From contig JAYSVR010000026.1 of the NCBI GenBank assembly GCA_043718445.1, positions 2,900 to 66,899 of the forward strand: a stretch of DNA of 64,000 bases, written 5' to 3'. Shown here piece by piece: positions 16,112 to 52,505 of this stretch. Position numbers and translations under genes: made by a program. The first letter of the stretch is position 1. Each line of letters starts with the position of its first letter. This DNA is from Acidobacteriota bacterium. Its GTDB lineage: Bacteria > Acidobacteriota > Blastocatellia > RBC074. A model generated the notes under the pieces. The model made no database searches and was not told the origin of the DNA. It saw nothing but the letters and a program-made list of their open reading frames with translations.

Positions 16112-16135
16112 AGGCAAGAGACTCAGTGGCAAACG

Positions 16136-16230
16136 GCATTCTCAATTCCCCATTCTCAATTCTTATACAGAAGAAACATTGGCTTACAGTTTTCTCTTTA
16201 AAAGAATTGAGAATGGGGAATTGAGAATGC
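16136..16230. repeat. Perfect 29-bp-arm inverted repeat (gcattctcaattccccattctcaattctt / aagaattgagaatggggaattgagaatgc) with a 37-nt loop, between sdhA and sdhB
   Basis: Read directly from the sequence. Each arm also contains the direct repeat attctcaatt twice. Confidence 0.6.
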
Positions 16231-16267
16231 CGATGCCGCAATGGTTCGGTTTTAAGGAGACGCATAA

Positions 16268-18931: not shown

Positions 18932-18996
18932 AAAAAAGCACAGGATTCACAAAACTTATTCTTTCAAAACGTTTTGTGAATCCTGTGCTTTTTGTT
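18932..18996. terminator. Bidirectional rho-independent terminator between the convergent sulfatase (+) and 19017-19406 (-) genes
   Basis: aaaaaagcacaggattcacaaaac ... gttttgtgaatcctgtgctttttgtt forms a stem of about 19 bp. It is flanked by an A-run on one side and a T-run on the other. Confidence 0.7.
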
Positions 18997-23720: not shown

Positions 23721-23747
23721 GGTGTTATTTAGCTCCTTAAAAATGGG

Positions 23748-23813
23748 TAGGACAGGTTCGTAACCTGTCCGCTTTCCGCTGACGGTAGGACAGGTTACGA
23801 ACCTGTCCTACCC
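23748..23813. repeat. Tandem pair of REP-like hairpins (ggacaggtt-cgt-aacctgtcc and ggtaggacaggtt-acg-aacctgtcctacc), probable ridA terminator
   Basis: Read from the sequence. The second hairpin is followed on the minus strand by ttttt. The same gtagg.caggtt core recurs at 40654. Confidence 0.5.
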
Positions 23814-23820
23814 AACTACG

Positions 23821-34497: not shown

Positions 34498-35670
34498 CTA
34501 AGGCAAACCAACATAATTTTCTGCCAGTGCTGTGGCTGCCGCTCGCGAACTCACTACGTAATCCAATTCAGACAGTTGCAATCGTTGCTGAAAATCACTC
34601 TGCTCAGGAAAGCGATGCAACAACGAAGTCATCCACCACGAGAAATGCTGAACGCGCCAAACGCGGCGCAAACAGGTCGTCGAATAAGCCGCCAGCAATT
34701 CCCGCTGGCCCGCCTGATAAAAAGCTGCGAACGCTTGCGACAAAACGCGCACGTCGGCCATCGCCAGATTCATGCCTTTCGCTCCCGTTGGCGGAACGAT
34801 GTGCGCGGCATCGCCTGCCAAAAACAACTTGCCGAATTGCATCGGTTCCGCGACGAAGCTGCGCATCGGCGTAACGCCTTTTTGCAGGATCGTACCTTCA
34901 GTCAGTTGCAAGCTGGTATCAGCGCCCAGACGTAATTCCAACTCTTCCCAAATGCGCGCGTCAGGCCAGTGCGCGATGTCTTCGTCTGGCGCACATTGCA
35001 AATAAAGCCGCGTGATCTCTGGCGTACGCATACTGAACAACGCAAAGCCGCGCGGATGATGGCAATAGATCAATTCATCGGAAGGAGGTTTCGATTGCGC
35101 CAGAATGCCGAGCCAGCCAAAGGGGTAAACCCGTTCATAAATTTGCAACGCACTGGCGGGAATCGCTGAACGCGCAATGCCGTGAAAGCCGTCGCATCCG
35201 CCAATGAAATCACAAGCGATCTCGTGTGACTCGCCGTCTTTGCGAAAGCGAATCTTCGGCGCGTCGGAATCAAGGTCGTGCAGGCTGGTGGCTTCGGCTT
35301 CAAAGTGCAGCGGCAAGCCCGCGTCGAGCCGCACTTGAATCAAATCCTTCACGACTTCCTGTTGGCCGTAAACCGTGATCGCGCGCCCGCCCGTCAGTTC
35401 GTGTAAATCAAGGCGATGCCGCGCGTTGTTAAAACTTAGTTCAAGGCCGTGATGAACCAACCCTTGCCGCCGCATGCGTTCGCCGACACCGGCTTCGTTC
35501 AGCGTGTCAACGGTTCCCTGTTCCAACACTCCGGCACGCACGCGGCTCTCGACATACTCGCGGCTGCGGCTTTCGATCACGATGGATTCGATGCCTTGCC
35601 GATGCAACAAGTGTGCAAGCAACAAGCCCGCCGGGCCTGCGCCGATGATGCCGACCTGCGTTTTGATCAA
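34498..35670 (-). CDS. pobA: 4-hydroxybenzoate 3-monooxygenase
   Basis: IGAGPAGLLLAHLL, CDGFHG and LAGDAAHIVPPTGAKGMNLA motifs. 390-aa length. Confidence 0.9.
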   Translation of the reverse strand: MIKTQVGIIGAGPAGLLLAHLLHRQGIESIVIESRSREYVESRVRAGVLEQGTVDTLNEAGVGERMRRQGLVHHGLELSFNNARHRLDLHELTGGRAITVYGQQEVVKDLIQVRLDAGLPLHFEAEATSLHDLDSDAPKIRFRKDGESHEIACDFIGGCDGFHGIARSAIPASALQIYERVYPFGWLGILAQSKPPSDELIYCHHPRGFALFSMRTPEITRLYLQCAPDEDIAHWPDARIWEELELRLGADTSLQLTEGTILQKGVTPMRSFVAEPMQFGKLFLAGDAAHIVPPTGAKGMNLAMADVRVLSQAFAAFYQAGQRELLAAYSTTCLRRVWRVQHFSWWMTSLLHRFPEQSDFQQRLQLSELDYVVSSRAAATALAENYVGLP

Positions 35671-36141
35671 TTACGTCACCGTATAAAAGTCCAACAACAC
35701 AGCCGCTTTGGTGCGTACGCCGGAACACACAGCGACGACGCGATTCAACCAATCGTATTTAGCAGCGCCCGTTTCAAACACCGGCACGGCGCGAAAGTAA
35801 TACTTCGCCGGATCAACTTCATCGCCGCGCGCGATGGCCGCCAACACTTCGGGCGAGCCATGCCGCACGCCGGTGTTACGCACATAAATCAACGCGCCGT
35901 CTTCGGTGCGCAGCGTGTAACGCGCTTCGAGCAACGCCGTACCGTCTGCCGCGACGATTTGCCAATCTGCGCCGCCTGGCAAAACTTCGCCGCGCAAGCG
36001 CGCGCCTTCTACGCGCCCGCCCGTGATCGGGATGATGCGGCGTTCGCCCGTCAGCACCTTGCCGATGCTTTGCGGCGGAGCCAGCGTGATGCTCAGGTGC
36101 GCGAGCAACTCAAGTTTTGGCGTGACTGGTTTCAAGTCCAT
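35671..36141 (-). CDS. DUF3237-family beta-barrel protein
   Basis: The pattern RRIIPITGGRVEGARLRGEVLPGGADWQ is typical of DUF3237. The start MDLKPV is preceded by AAGGTG. The gene abuts pobA. Confidence 0.6.
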   Translation of the reverse strand: MDLKPVTPKLELLAHLSITLAPPQSIGKVLTGERRIIPITGGRVEGARLRGEVLPGGADWQIVAADGTALLEARYTLRTEDGALIYVRNTGVRHGSPEVLAAIARGDEVDPAKYYFRAVPVFETGAAKYDWLNRVVAVCSGVRTKAAVLLDFYTVT

Positions 36142-36152
36142 AGATTCACCTT

Positions 36153-37244
36153 TTAACCCCAGACTTCGCGCGCCGTTTCGGCCACCAACTTTAACTTGGC
36201 TTCCTGATCGGCAGGCGTAACAAGATTGCCTTCGAGCGTCGAAGCAAAGCCGCACTGCGGACTGAGCGCCAACCGGTCGAGCGAAATATATTGCGCAGCT
36301 TCGTTGATGCGGCGTTTGAGTTCGTCCTGACTTTCGAGTTCAGGTTTTTTAGTGCTGACCAGTCCTAAAACGCCGACGCGATCTTCGGGCACTTCGGCCA
36401 GCGGCTCGAATCCGCCCGAACGCGCATCGTCGAATTCGAGCAGGAAGCGGTCGAACTTGGTTTGCTGAAAGACTTTCGTAATCGGGCCGTAATCGCCTTG
36501 CGCGTAAAACTTGCTCTGGTTGTTGCCGCGACACAGATGCAAACCGAACTGAACGGTAGCCCCCTTGCCTGAAAGCTGGCTGATGATTGCGTTATCCATC
36601 TCGATAGAAAGGTCGAGCAAGCGGTCGGGATCGTTGCCGCGTTGCCGATAGCCCTCACGCAACGCCGGATCAAGCAACGCAGTATATTGCGGTGAATCAA
36701 TTTGAATATATTGGCAGCCGAGGCGAATCAGTTCGTCAATTTCGCCGCGCAAAATGTCTACGAGATCGGCGAGGTAAGCGTCCACCGTGGCGTATGCGCC
36801 TTTCGATTTGTCTGCGTCGTAATAGGCCGCCGCCTGTTGCGCACTGACCAGCGTCGTCTTCGCCGGGCGCGTCGTACTCGCGCGCAGCCAGGTGAACTCT
36901 TCGGCGCACATATGCCGCTTGCGCTGTAACTTTGAAACTACGACGGGACGTTGCAACACGAGTTCTTCGCCCGCGTCATTGCGGAACGGAATCGCCCAGC
37001 CGCCGTATTTGTCGAAGCCCTCGACGGCATCAATCAAGTGGCCGTAAAACGCATAGCGCCGCATCTCTCCATCGGTGACGACTTCGATGTCGGCACGTTC
37101 CTGCAACTCAACGGCTTCGCTAACGGCGCGGTCTTCGATTTGTTTGAACAGCGTGTCTGACAACTCGCCCGCTTCATGCTTGACGCGCGCGTCTTTCAAA
37201 TAAGCTGGTCGCAACAGGCTTCCTACTACATCGCTTCGATACAC
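36153..37244 (-). CDS. MetE-family (cobalamin-independent methionine synthase C-terminal-domain-like) Zn-dependent methyltransferase
   Basis: 363-aa UroD/MetE-like barrel. His-x-Cys Zn motif in GLHLCRGN and distal Cys in PQCGF. GTG start preceded by AAGGAG. Confidence 0.7.
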   Translation of the reverse strand: MYRSDVVGSLLRPAYLKDARVKHEAGELSDTLFKQIEDRAVSEAVELQERADIEVVTDGEMRRYAFYGHLIDAVEGFDKYGGWAIPFRNDAGEELVLQRPVVVSKLQRKRHMCAEEFTWLRASTTRPAKTTLVSAQQAAAYYDADKSKGAYATVDAYLADLVDILRGEIDELIRLGCQYIQIDSPQYTALLDPALREGYRQRGNDPDRLLDLSIEMDNAIISQLSGKGATVQFGLHLCRGNNQSKFYAQGDYGPITKVFQQTKFDRFLLEFDDARSGGFEPLAEVPEDRVGVLGLVSTKKPELESQDELKRRINEAAQYISLDRLALSPQCGFASTLEGNLVTPADQEAKLKLVAETAREVWG

Positions 37245-37260
37245 AGTTTCTCCTTGTCAG

Positions 37261-37367
37261 ACGTAGCGCAGACTTCAGTCTGTGACCCGTATCGCGGACT
37301 TTAGTCCGCCAGTCATGCGCAGACTAAAGTCCGCGATACGGGTCACAGACTGAAGTCTGCGCTACGT
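37261..37367. repeat. Perfect palindrome: 46-bp arms (37261-37306 / 37322-37367) around a 15-nt loop, filling the intergenic region upstream of the MetE-like gene
   Basis: The arms are exact reverse complements. Each arm contains the smaller palindromes cagacttcagtctg and gcggactttagtccgc. Confidence 0.65.
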
Positions 37368-37368
37368 G

Positions 37369-38256
37369 TTAGGTGTTAATCGCTTGCGCCAACGTGCGGT
37401 AATCTTCCGGCACGTCGCCGCTGAAATGTTCTTTCAATCCAAGTTGTGCGCCCCACTCTTGCCGTTTGACGATGGCTTCGGCCATCAGCGGTTCGATACC
37501 GGCGGCGCGCAAGGTCGCGGCGACTTCTTCTAACTCGCGCGCGCGACGTTCGCCGTGTTCGATAACGCGGCTCATGCAATAGCCCGCCAGCTTGCTCCAA
37601 TTCATGCCCGGCCACGACGCTTCGAGCGAAGCGAACACGCGCTCGTCCACGCCGTATTTGGTCGCGCCCAGCACGCATTCAAACAGCAAGGCTTCGATCC
37701 CTTTGACCATGATGCTGCGGCACATTTTGACCGCGACCGCCGCGCCGATTTCGTCAGAAACGATTTCGAGTTTCATGCCGTAAGGCGCGAGCAATTCAAC
37801 AAAGGCAACCGCATGCACGCCGCCCAACAACATCGGAACCTGATGGCCTTGCCGCAACGGCACCGGAGCCATCACAGCCGCTTCGACAAAGCGCGCGCCT
37901 GCGGCAGTGACCGTCTGGTCAATCGTGCGTTTGGTTTCAGGCGAAACCGAATTGAGATCGGCGTAAAGCTGATGAGCTTGCAAATAAGGCGCAAACTGGG
38001 CGGCGGCTTCAGCGGCGGAATTCGCCGTGACAACCGAAAGCATCACGTCGCAACGCGCGGCTAAGGCTTCAGGCGAAGCGCATAAGACCACTTCGGTTTC
38101 AGCCGCGCGTGCTTGAATGCGTTCGCCGCGTCCAGGTGTATGTGTGTGCAAGTCATACGCCGCGAGTTGCGTGACACCTGCGCCGCTCAAGCCGCTGGCG
38201 AGACGAGAGCCGGCTTCGCCAAAACCGACGAAACCAATTTTGAGTTCGCTACTCAT
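37369..38256 (-). CDS. NAD(P)-binding dehydrogenase (6-phosphogluconate/3-hydroxyisobutyrate dehydrogenase-like NAD-binding domain + DUF1932)
   Basis: Rossmann motif KIGFVGFGEAGSRLA. Confidence 0.6.
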   Translation of the reverse strand: MSSELKIGFVGFGEAGSRLASGLSGAGVTQLAAYDLHTHTPGRGERIQARAAETEVVLCASPEALAARCDVMLSVVTANSAAEAAAQFAPYLQAHQLYADLNSVSPETKRTIDQTVTAAGARFVEAAVMAPVPLRQGHQVPMLLGGVHAVAFVELLAPYGMKLEIVSDEIGAAVAVKMCRSIMVKGIEALLFECVLGATKYGVDERVFASLEASWPGMNWSKLAGYCMSRVIEHGERRARELEEVAATLRAAGIEPLMAEAIVKRQEWGAQLGLKEHFSGDVPEDYRTLAQAINT

Positions 38257-40457: not shown

Positions 40458-40610
40458 AATTCCCTCTCGAAACGGTTTTCGAAATAACAGCCAGTTTCCA
40501 GCCTGACAGTAATTAGAACTCTAGCAGGTATAACAGTGCCGCCGATTGAACTAATTCAGGTTTCATCTTTGAACCCTTCTGATATGTCAGCTTAGGGCAA
40601 ATGACCTTTA

Positions 40611-40707
40611 GATCGGTTTTCAGTTAGGTTTACGGGAAAACCTTAAACGCGATGTAGGGCAGGTTAAGAACCTACCCTACACCCGTAAACGCAATTGCAA
40701 ACCGATC
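40611..40707. repeat. Nested triple inverted repeat (outer gatcggttt/aaaccgatc, middle gtttacggg/cccgtaaac, inner gtagggcaggtt-aag-aacctaccctac) between an SDR gene and the PQQ-ADH gene
   Basis: Read from the sequence. The inner hairpin shares its core with the 23748-23813 REP-like elements. Confidence 0.5.
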
Positions 40708-41453
40708 TAGTGCAAATAACCGCCGCCATCGCACAAGATCATTTGCCCCGTAATCAATTCGGCGTCATCGCTCGCCAGAAAAGCGATGAGTCCGGCGAGG
40801 TGTTCGGGCTTGCCGCGTTTCTTGATAGCCTGATTGCCCATCACGCGGTTGAAGGCGGCTTCGTCTGAATGCGCCATTGTCCCTTCGGTAGCGATCATGC
40901 CCGGCGCGACGGCGTTCACACAGATATTGTCGTCGCCCATCTCTTTTGCCATCACGCGCGTCATTCCCATCACTGCGCCTTTGGCGGCGACATAAGCCAT
41001 CTGCCCCGGATTTGCCAAAAAATAAGTGCGTGACGCCACGTTGATCAGCCGCCCGTATTCGCTTTTTTTCAGCAACGGATAAATCGCTTTCGACACGAGG
41101 AAGTAGCCGAGATAATTGACCTGAATAAAACGATTCACTTCTTCATACGACAACTCGTGCCAGGGCGTCTTGCCAGAGAGGATGCCCGCGTTGTTGACCA
41201 GAATGTCTACGCGCTCGTGCCGCGACGCGATGGCGGCGACGGCTTGCGCGATTTGCGCTTCGCTTGTGACATCACAGATTTCAGCGTGCGCTTGTCCGCC
41301 CGCCGCGCGAATTTCATTCACGGTTTCGGCGGCATCATTGATGTCGAGAATTTCGACGGCAGCACCATCTGCCGCCAACCGAATTGCCGCAGCCTTGCCA
41401 ATACCGACTGCCGCGCCTGAGACGACTGCGACACGATTTGCTAAACGAGTCAT
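40707..41453 (-). CDS. SDR-family oxidoreductase
   Basis: VAVVSGAAVGIGKAAA and a YxxxK catalytic pair. The start is set at MTRLANR to avoid a 100-bp overlap. Confidence 0.8.
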   Translation of the reverse strand: MTRLANRVAVVSGAAVGIGKAAAIRLAADGAAVEILDINDAAETVNEIRAAGGQAHAEICDVTSEAQIAQAVAAIASRHERVDILVNNAGILSGKTPWHELSYEEVNRFIQVNYLGYFLVSKAIYPLLKKSEYGRLINVASRTYFLANPGQMAYVAAKGAVMGMTRVMAKEMGDDNICVNAVAPGMIATEGTMAHSDEAAFNRVMGNQAIKKRGKPEHLAGLIAFLASDDAELITGQMILCDGGGYLH

Positions 41454-48420: not shown

Positions 48421-48500
48421 GTCTCTAAAACAACAGGTAGTGACGACTTCAGTTGTTCCGTGCATTCGTGGTATCGGAACGACTGAAGTCGTCATTACCT
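48421..48500 (-). terminator. Rho-independent terminator downstream of the PepSY gene (25-bp stem with 2 mismatches, then a U-rich tract on the minus strand)
   Basis: aggtagtgacgacttcagttgttccg ... cggaacgactgaagtcgtcattacct, then guuguuuua on the minus-strand transcript. Confidence 0.5.
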
Positions 48501-52308: not shown

Positions 52309-52376
52309 TGCTATCCTCTCTCAAGTCTCAAATCTGAAATGTCAGTTTTCTTAGGAAATTGAATACTCGCTTTGGT

Positions 52377-52471
52377 TTGAGTGGGAATTCGCCACAAAGA
52401 AGCACATAAACCACAAAAGAAAAGAAAAATTTTGTGGCTCTTGTGCTTTTTTGCGGCGAATTCCCACTCAA
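52377..52471. repeat. Long imperfect inverted repeat (about 40-bp arms with about 6 mismatches, 11-nt A-rich loop) between the amidohydrolase and LmbE-like genes
   Basis: ttgagtgggaattcgccacaaagaagcacataaaccacaaaa ... ttttgtggctcttgtgcttttttgcggcgaattcccactcaa. Confidence 0.5.
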
Positions 52472-52505
52472 GTTAAAGGTAGAATTTAAATTTCCAAACA
52501 AGCTC

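Follow-up and report, generated by a model that had tools for sequence, protein, structure and literature searches.

Introduction

The textbook repetitive extragenic palindrome (REP) is a short perfect stem-loop preceded by the tetranucleotide GTAG (PMC8266576). In the survey of GTAG-tagged REPs and of their dimers and groups by Di Nocera, De Gregorio, and Rocco (2013; PMC3733652), a stem of 6 to 9 bp closed by a 2-nt TY loop is the commonest format. Two inverted REP arms that make up one hairpin of ~100 nt constitute a REPIN, a nonautonomous element whose cognate REP-associated tyrosine transposase (RAYT, or RayT) is encoded by a single-copy gene flanked by the repeats (Bertels and Rainey 2011, PMC3116915; PMC3337134). 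In the REPtron described by the Ton-Hoang group (Corneloup et al. 2021, PMC8266576), the gene for such a Y1/HUH transposase, TnpA_REP (structure 4ER8), is bracketed by a REP and an inverted REP. Here we describe a 107-nt palindrome at positions 37261 to 37367 of a 64-kb stretch of contig JAYSVR010000026.1 (assembly GCA_043718445.1; the whole stretch is called the window) from an uncultured acidobacterium. The palindrome is not a conserved leader, riboswitch, or terminator. Very probably, it is a cluster of four GTAG-type REPs, similar to a REPIN or to a bacterial interspersed mosaic element (BIME), that belongs to a RayT-moved family and is a recent arrival at its present place, where a dehydrogenase gene is followed by the gene for a protein resembling methionine synthase (MetE-like).

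To our knowledge, REP/RayT systems have been studied almost exclusively in Gammaproteobacteria. Transcribed palindromic repeats that shape the fate of mRNA include the REP between malE and malF of Escherichia coli, the Correia/NEMIS elements of Neisseria, which are cut by RNase III, and the enterobacterial repetitive intergenic consensus (ERIC) elements of Yersinia. The locus described here provides a clear REP example from an uncultured acidobacterium and may serve as an entry point to hairpin recognition by RayT and to the spread of such repeats.

Anatomy of the palindrome

The two arms of the palindrome (37261 to 37309 and 37319 to 37367) are 49 nt long, 98% complementary, and 9 nt apart, as indicated by both the sequence and a repeat finder. 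An equivalent description, given in an earlier reading of the letters without database searches (the sequence-only reading) and reproduced by both approaches, is one of 46 perfect pairs (37261 to 37306 with 37322 to 37367) around a 15-nt loop (37307 to 37321). The sole mismatch between the arms is C/A on the plus strand and a G-U wobble on the minus strand, which is the mRNA sense of all the neighboring genes, so that 49 contiguous pairs would form in a transcript. The folding energy, which the earlier reading had left to be computed, was predicted to be -102.2 kcal/mol for the 107-nt RNA, compared with -33.3 ± 3.6 kcal/mol for its dinucleotide shuffles (z = -19.2), none of which, in 200, folded as well, and that of the palindrome with its flanks was -111.7 kcal/mol (z = -14.2).

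Nested within the palindrome, as had also been remarked from the sequence alone, are smaller palindromes: CRGACTNNAGTCYG occurs four times (at 37269, 37295, 37320, and 37346), and these are the sole copies in the 64 kb, where 0.26 would be expected. Each arm reads GTAG-CGCAGACT-TC-AGTCTGTG, then a 4-nt spacer, then GTAT-CGCGGACT-TT-AGTCCGC, and the second arm is an inverted copy of the first. Unit 1 (outer; 37263 to 37284, plus strand) consists of a GTAG tag and a hairpin with a TC loop (GTAGCGCAGACTTCAGTCTGTG); it matches the family pattern exactly and, as a single-unit RNA, has a predicted fold of -8.3 kcal/mol. Unit 2 (inner; 37289 to 37310, plus strand), recognized from direct repeat D1 and from the family pattern, has the degenerate tag GTAT and a TT loop (GTATCGCGGACTTTAGTCCGCC) and stands head to tail with unit 1, with the spacer ACCC between them. 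Central unpaired bases (37311 to 37318) form the loop of the long hairpin according to the sequence, the repeat finder, and the fold. Unit 3 (inner, TT loop, tag GTAT; 37318 to 37339, minus strand) is an inverted unit 2 from which it differs by one base (GTCTG versus GTCCG), and unit 4 (outer, TC loop, tag GTAG; 37344 to 37365, minus strand) is an inverted unit 1, identical to it. All four units thus share one format, in which the hairpin CGCRGACT-TY-AGTCYGCG comes after a tag, either GTAG or GTAT, with stems of 8 bp in units 1 and 4 and of 7 to 8 bp in units 2 and 3, and in each of them a tag precedes a short perfect stem-loop, as the structural definition of a REP has it. Because each arm holds two such units in tandem, the whole of 37261 to 37367 can be described, from sequence, repeat finder, and fold alike, as four GTAG-type REPs in the order REP> REP> <REP <REP. 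Written with the loops, the order is >TC >TT <TT <TC, with the GTAG tags outermost, which is the REP-plus-inverted-REP arrangement of BIMEs and of GTAG-outside dimers.

The units share the GTAG end tag with the elements surveyed in PMC3733652 and with the classical REP and BIME elements of E. coli and Pseudomonas, and their stems of 7 to 8 bp fall within the typical range; TY loops are one of the two commonest kinds in that survey, in which GTAG-outside (“HH”) dimers dominate, several families can inhabit one genome, the repeats lie downstream of coding regions in codirectional or convergent spacers, and G-T pairing is taken to suggest that they function as RNA. As perfect short palindromes preceded by GTAG, the units also resemble the group 3 REPs of PMC8266576, and the whole element resembles a REPIN in its two inverted arms and single long hairpin. 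Unlike a REPIN, it has two REPs per arm rather than one, and the close head-to-tail doublet that makes up each arm belongs to a class called absent or underrepresented in PMC3733652. What is unusual here is this doublet, the near-perfect symmetry of the four units, the acidobacterial host, and the breadth of the family.

The REP family in other genomes

We scanned one genome per species (596 Gb) for exact matches to the 20-mer GTAKCGCRGACTTYAGTCYG and obtained at least 129 matches in at least 117 stretches, whereas ~17 matches would be expected on both strands with uniform base composition. Judged by record titles, the loci among the matches listed came from Acidobacteriota (39), Bacteroidota (22), Ignavibacteria/Kapaibacteria (16), Planctomycetota (12), Chloroflexota (7), Proteobacteria (6), Cyanobacteria (5), Verrucomicrobiota (5), and Firmicutes (2), with one each from Chlamydiae, Armatimonadota, and Zixibacteria, that is, from about 12 phyla. 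A few of the proteobacterial matches with GTAT look like chance hits within genes. Several metagenome-assembled genomes (MAGs) among these matches had 4 to 6 separate loci each.

The 117 listed loci (833 kb) contained 242 family units when up to 3 substitutions were allowed, and shuffled loci contained none. Where neighboring units lay no more than 120 nt apart, 67 pairs were inverted with GTAG outside, 5 were inverted with GTAG inside, and 12 were in tandem. The first of these arrangements is the one called “privileged” in PMC3733652 and is that of the REPIN in Bertels and Rainey (PMC3116915). Only 39% of the units fell in stop-free stretches of at least 150 codons, compared with 86% of random 20-mers. 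The REP sequence itself had no match in the full-text literature or in the text and supplements of PMC3733652, a survey of 24 GTAG families whose consensus sequences stand in a figure. Three loci (L042, 5998 to 6023; L105, 1156 to 1181; L111, 116 to 141) each have a single REP of the same family that is tagged on both strands (GTAGCGCGGACTTCAGTCTGCGCTAC) and can be read either way.

Association with RayT-type transposase genes

Some relatives of the units lie next to genes for transposases of the RayT type. The most informative case is a locus (L051) of the acidobacterial MAG S-RSF-IL-17, whose MetE-like protein is 93% identical to that of the window. Its 229-amino-acid (aa) open reading frame (ORF) matched Pfam Y1_Tnp with 30.2 bits (cutoff, 23) and NCBIfam REP_Tyr_transpos, the REP-associated tyrosine transposase model, with 69.8 bits; the latter score is under the cutoff of 80, so we treat the protein as a RayT-like relative rather than as a certified equivalog. 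The closest solved relative was E. coli TnpA_REP, 4ER8, with an alignment confined to the C-terminal third (E = 4e-4). In its strong stretch, Tyr192 of the ORF stands opposite the residue counted as Tyr115 of 4ER8, the presumed catalytic tyrosine of that enzyme, and the HVH of the ORF stands opposite the HMH of 4ER8 in the second, nonsignificant stretch only. The protein is only distantly related to E. coli TnpA_REP, and it differs further in its length of ~230 aa and in an N-terminal R-N-L-P-H-W region. A database search with it returned 1,808 relatives, many of them named “REP element-mobilizing transposase RayT” by JGI.

The RayT-type gene of L051 is bracketed by REPs of the family, in the order >TC >TC >TT <TT <TC upstream and <TT <TC downstream, and these clusters are 86 to 90% identical to the arms of the window palindrome. 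The doublet >TC >TT is present there and again at a second locus (L095) of the same MAG. All three of the further RayT homologs that we inspected (L127, L128, and L129; 57 to 60% identical) had same-family REPs on both sides (GTAGCATAGACTTTAGTCTG, GTAGCACAGACTTCAGTCTG, and GTGGCACAGACTTYAGTCTG), as L051 does; homologs from a member of the Pyrinomonadaceae (L067) and from one of the Armatimonadetes (L084) had a REP on one side, 40 to 60 nt away. The transposases associated with these REPs diverge to about 33% identity (L084 versus L051).

Three observations concern these transposase loci themselves. At L129/L130, an inverted GTGGCACAGACTTCAGTCTG pair (1885 to 1970) lies within the RayT-like ORF (gene 1501 to 2244, 247 aa versus ~230 aa in relatives) and looks like an in-frame REP insertion in a transposase gene. 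At L051, the module of RayT gene and REPs lies between two copies of ~60 nt (1700 to 1760 and 2720 to 2800) that encode the end of a multi-heme-like protein (...NEQKQNLLAPVSCSGCH) and could be tandem paralogs or an insertion-linked duplication. The REP-adjacent homolog of L067 (6847 to 7532) is split into two overlapping frames, as in a frameshifted pseudogene or after a sequencing error.

The orthologous site in relatives

All the genes around the palindrome are on the minus strand. Upstream, in the direction of transcription, is a gene for a 295-aa NAD_binding_2/DUF1932 dehydrogenase (37369 to 38256), the stop codon of which (37371 to 37369) is separated from the palindrome by 1 nt. Downstream is the gene for the MetE-like protein, a 363-aa member of the cobalamin-independent methionine synthase-like Meth_synt_2 family (36153 to 37244). 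Its AAGGAG Shine-Dalgarno sequence (37255 to 37250) begins 5 nt past the palindrome, and its GTG start (at 37244) lies 16 nt past it; genes for a DUF3237 protein and for a FAD_binding_3 (PobA-like) protein follow. The sequence-only reading had placed the element right after the dehydrogenase stop codon and about 6 nt before AAGGAG, and both placements agree with these positions. It had also called the region a 5' leader, a term that we have dropped in favor of intercistronic spacer, as the region lies between codirectional genes and is not demonstrably a leader.

Two pairs of relatives, L118/L119 (MetE-like protein 97% identical) and L120/L121 (93%), keep the order of dehydrogenase and then MetE-like gene. 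In pairwise DNA alignments, the flanks of L118 and L120 match the window almost base for base, and the homology breaks off sharply: it ends after GCGATT (37378) and restarts at AGGAG (37253). According to these alignments and to the protein C termini, a minus-strand segment of ~124 nt (37254 to 37377) has no counterpart in the close relatives; it comprises the palindrome, 10 nt on the dehydrogenase side (encoding the C terminus N-T-stop), and ~7 nt on the Shine-Dalgarno side. The dehydrogenase ends in ...AINT* in the window and in ...AIQGQYFA* and ...AIQGQ* in the relatives, so the event rewrote its last codons. No units of the window's REP class were found in the loci L118, L119, L120, and L121. 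In the same slot, L118 and L120 instead have an unrelated GGGAGTGAT-repeat palindrome, with a predicted fold of -65.8 kcal/mol in L120 and of -27.7 kcal/mol in L118, where it has decayed. Two further loci, L122 and L126, have other upstream genes and other palindromes (built of CACGAAG and GACGCGAA repeats, respectively), and in L123 and L125 (87 to 89% identical), the transporter gene and the MetE-like gene are only 22 and 13 nt apart, with no hairpin between them. The element is therefore polymorphic for presence and absence, being absent from L118/L119, L120/L121, L122, L123, L125, and L126.

The sequence-only reading had proposed a recent or mobile origin of the MITE (miniature transposable element with inverted repeats) or REP type, or else a dedicated protein-binding site or an RNA structure gating translation. 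The first proposal is strongly supported in its REP form, given the GTAG tag with its hairpin, the dispersed family in many genomes, the RayT-type neighbors, and the absence from the site in close relatives. A MITE in the strict sense found no support: the flanks (...GTCAG|ACGTAGC...GCTACGT|GTTAG...) carry no direct repeat that would mark a target-site duplication, and the unit consists of a tag and a hairpin, not of insertion sequence ends with their terminal inverted repeats. In this respect the element is also unlike Correia and ERIC elements, MITEs that do have both terminal inverted repeats and duplicated targets. The second proposal was not supported, since the structure is not conserved at the orthologous loci and two orthologs have spacers of only 13 to 22 nt. 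An Rfam scan of positions 30 to 45 kb returned only subthreshold plant and animal microRNA hairpin models, which we dismissed as generic matches to long hairpins. With the orthologous leaders unrelated or absent and nothing meaningful from Rfam, a riboswitch or other conserved cis-regulatory leader was rejected, and a dedicated riboswitch, attenuator, or operator is excluded as far as the comparison shows. A CRISPR array, which would need regularly spaced direct repeats with unique spacers, was likewise rejected, as were tRNA-like or small-ORF content and an insertion sequence end.

The operator idea deserves separate mention, for the palindrome can also be seen as four 16-bp palindromic sites (GCRGACT-NN-AGTCYGC), 25 to 26 bp apart, at which a dimeric factor or a nucleoid protein might control the aromatic-acid/MetE-like operon. 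The sites are regularly spaced and dyad symmetric, and the REP/BIME elements of E. coli are bound by IHF, gyrase, and Pol I. IHF recruitment is also mentioned in the abstract of PMC3479197. However, these units recur across about a dozen phyla, where they are found at hundreds of unrelated loci and next to RayT genes on both sides; the orthologous operons lack them, and there is no sigma-70-like promoter nearby on which bound protein could act. We consider such an operator array highly improbable.

Harder to dismiss, but still unlikely in our view, is the idea that an intercistronic RNA hairpin (a stabilizer, a processing site, or a decoupler) is under selection at this site, that any palindromic repeat able to provide it is kept, and that the REP cluster is merely the current occupant of a functional slot. 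In four contexts, some of them with another upstream gene, a long hairpin of unrelated sequence lies shortly before the Shine-Dalgarno sequence of the MetE-like gene: beside the window (-102 kcal/mol, 5 nt before it) and the L118 and L120 palindromes, L122 has one with a predicted fold of -69 kcal/mol (z = -11.9), and inverted repeats in L126 end ~35 nt before the Shine-Dalgarno sequence. In addition, the one mismatch in the window stem pairs (as G-U) in the mRNA sense only. Against this, the orthologs at 87 to 89% identity do without any hairpin in spacers of 13 to 22 nt, and on a simpler view, insertion of an element is all that made the spacer long. Long palindromes occur in about a fifth of the window spacers of at least 60 nt, so that repeated occupancy of a permissive site is not very surprising, and the visible decay of the L118 hairpin speaks against strong selection.

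Finally, a perfect palindrome could be a product of assembly, namely, a chimeric join or a fold-back that arose when the contig was put together from metagenomic reads; the contig does come from an uncultured organism, and library and assembly errors can make perfect palindromes. Yet gene order and near-identical flanks run through the site as in independent assemblies, the units are canonical REPs in an architecture seen in another MAG, and the palindrome is short and internal to the contig. An artifact is thus extremely improbable.

The genes around the site vary as well. The MetE-like/DUF3237/PobA-like cluster (34498 to 37244 of the window) is a mosaic relative to L120, L122, L123, L125, and L126: in L120 and L123, an AMP-binding ligase gene is inserted behind the MetE-like gene; L122, L125, and L126 lack DUF3237; and the upstream neighbor of the MetE-like gene is a dehydrogenase, AdoHcyase, MFS transporter, or enoyl-CoA hydratase gene. 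The MetE-like protein is probably a member of an aromatic-acid pathway and not a methionine synthase.

Proposed mobilization of the element

We propose that a RayT/TnpA_REP enzyme of the HUH/Y1 type, whose gene would lie elsewhere in the genome, cuts the REPs, themselves nonautonomous, and moves them as hairpins of folded single-stranded DNA. On the model of TnpA_REP and of IS200/IS605 transposition, the enzyme would recognize the folded single-stranded unit together with its GTAG tag and then cut and rejoin nearby. Before the copy arrived, its place would have been taken by an older palindrome of unrelated sequence and by the last few dehydrogenase codons. RayT-dependent mobilization in the source genome is inferred, whereas the anatomy of the units, their membership in the family, the association with RayT genes in other genomes, and the absence of the element from the orthologous site were observed directly.

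Several points weigh against a recent RayT-mediated arrival. The association with RayT rests on genomes other than the source, since genes flanked by the same REPs, which define a REPtron, were found for this family in those genomes only, and no tblastn match of the RayT protein was obtained in the 64-kb window, although this would be expected if a genome has one or few RayT genes. The window holds a single locus (with four units) of this REP class and no second one. In JGI metagenomes, the 22-mer spanning the junction of unit 1, spacer, and unit 2 had 0 exact matches, and a tandem doublet of any kind with a 3- to 4-nt spacer also had 0 matches; these searches thus turned up no further copy of the exact four-unit composite, although its units are highly repeated in other genomes, and they gave no sign of a REPIN-like population of near-identical copies or of the four units moving together. 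Units 2 and 3 are tagged GTAT rather than GTAG, and in PMC3733652, the degenerate tags of some GTAG families are changes at the second or third position or GTGG, with GTAT (fourth position) not among them. The replaced segment (~124 nt) is slightly longer than the palindrome, which is not what a clean insertion would leave. More generally, no REP transposition has been demonstrated directly in vivo (PMC8266576). Even with these points taken into account, arrival of a REP cluster of a RayT-moved family remains, in our judgment, the very probable explanation of the locus.

Predicted effects on the transcript

The palindrome is almost certainly transcribed within a polycistronic mRNA: the next ribosome-binding site follows after only ~6 nt and the scan showed nothing promoter-like, so any expression of the three downstream genes would require its transcription. 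Neither the sequence nor a promoter and terminator scan revealed a T/U tract, a terminator-like hit, or a sigma-70-like site at or near the palindrome. The sequence-only reading was therefore right that a U-tract is absent and that this is no canonical intrinsic terminator, and with no T run after either side, we rejected an intrinsic (Rho-independent) terminator. A terminator or attenuator that acts without a U-tract or with the assistance of Rho, ending the dehydrogenase transcript and insulating the MetE-like operon, would suit a hairpin of this great stability right behind a stop codon, and REPs have been proposed to act in transcription termination (PMC3733652). We nevertheless judge it very unlikely, as the T/U run and the terminator-like match are lacking and as an efficient terminator so close to the ribosome-binding site, with no promoter-like site found, would silence three intact downstream genes.

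The effects on RNA that we suggest are all predicted from the position and stability of the hairpin. First, a 49-bp RNA hairpin may block 3' exonucleases and thereby stabilize the upstream mRNA segment, the classical REP effect. Second, RNase III could process the transcript at this stem and so uncouple the two cistrons; for REP dimers, sensitivity to endoribonucleases may depend on how much of the dimer is paired (PMC3733652). The long hairpin within a polycistronic transcript, which can stabilize the upstream part or feed an endoribonuclease (in part from PMC3733652), is shared with the malE-malF REP, Correia/NEMIS, and ERIC elements. Third, termination on the dehydrogenase gene may be hindered, with ribosomes stalling and less output from that gene. 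We propose this because the stem starts 1 nt after the stop codon: in E. coli, according to Liang (2015) as reported in PMC12306157, a REP less than 16 nt from a stop codon stalls terminating ribosomes and lowers upstream translation.

In annotation, neither a terminator nor a regulator of the MetE-like/DUF3237/PobA-like operon should be entered at this palindrome. It is better described as repeat DNA of probable recent arrival that altered the end of the neighboring dehydrogenase. Palindromes that replace one another at a single operon junction bear on the question of whether such repeats are tolerated parasites or useful mRNA elements.

Breadth of the family

A wider picture is possible, and we put it forward tentatively, with more doubt than confidence. 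The core GTAG-CGCRGACT-TY-AGTCYGCG, together with a RayT-like transposase of ~230 aa, may represent one REPtron family that has stayed nearly unchanged in about a dozen phyla while its transposases diverged to ~33% identity. In the window's lineage, the two-REP doublet may have become the unit of propagation (“double-decker” REPINs), and the intercistronic slot may have been refilled several times by unrelated palindromes, hinting at selection for a hairpin. Among the matches listed, the shared core was found in Acidobacteriota, Planctomycetota, Ignavibacteria, Bacteroidota, Cyanobacteria, Chloroflexota, Verrucomicrobiota, and Armatimonadota. By comparison, REPIN-RAYT groups 2 and 3 are mainly enterobacterial and from Pseudomonas (PMC8266576), and PMC3733652 places GTAG repeats in Proteobacteria, Cyanobacteria, Chloroflexi, and the Planctomycetes-Verrucomicrobia-Chlamydiae group, with Acidobacteria named solely in connection with tyrosine transposases that have long terminal inverted repeats on their flanks. 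If the wider picture is true and the family not already catalogued, its breadth would be at odds with the view of REPIN-RAYT systems as lineage restricted, vertically inherited, and fast diverging, and either the hairpin would have to be under extreme constraint or transfer across phyla would have to be frequent.

Other palindromes in the window and in relatives

Including the element described above, the window has four GTAG-REP sites, all of them intergenic; three lie between codirectional genes, one lies between convergent genes, and none is in the five divergent spacers. A bias toward codirectional and convergent spacers is also reported for GTAG REPs in PMC3733652. A second REP class is represented at 23744 to 23814 by two inverted GTAGGACAGGTTCGTAACCTGTCC units with perfect 27-nt arms and a 17-nt center, which fill a 100-nt spacer between codirectional genes. 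An 82% identical relative of this element is present in L111, and a single GTGG-tagged unit follows the AdoHcyase stop codon in L122 (1063 to 1091). The REP at 40654 to 40680, GTAGGGCAGGTTAAGAACCTACCCTAC, a related unit, is tagged GTAG on both strands; it lies inside a 28-nt inverted repeat (40609 to 40709) between PQQ-dehydrogenase/cytochrome c and short-chain dehydrogenase genes. The fourth site, at 48435 to 48500 between convergent genes, is an inverted pair of GTAGTGACGACTTCAGT... units (GTAGTGACGACTTCAGTTGTTCCG type). These share the GACTTCAGT core with the element studied here and have a different stem, and the first arm is fully paired only if G-U is allowed.

A generic search of the window for GTAG followed by any hairpin gave 15 hits in total, at most slightly more than in shuffles (3 to 12) and no more than for some other tetranucleotide tags (1 to 20); only the strong hits at 23747 to 23811, 37263/37365, and 40654/40680 are meaningful. 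The window also has long intergenic palindromes with no tag, at 16134 to 16232, 18933 to 18993, and 52344 to 52504. Similar untagged palindromes are present in relatives (L120, 2874 to 2984; L122, 1143 to 1235; L126, 2274 to 2451), in all three cases just upstream of the MetE-like gene. Their arms are built of short tandem repeats, for example, CATTCTCAATTC, CACAAAGAAG, GGGAGTGAT, CACGAAGA, and GACGCGAA, and these untagged palindromes look like a separate class of hairpin repeats that is typical of the lineage.

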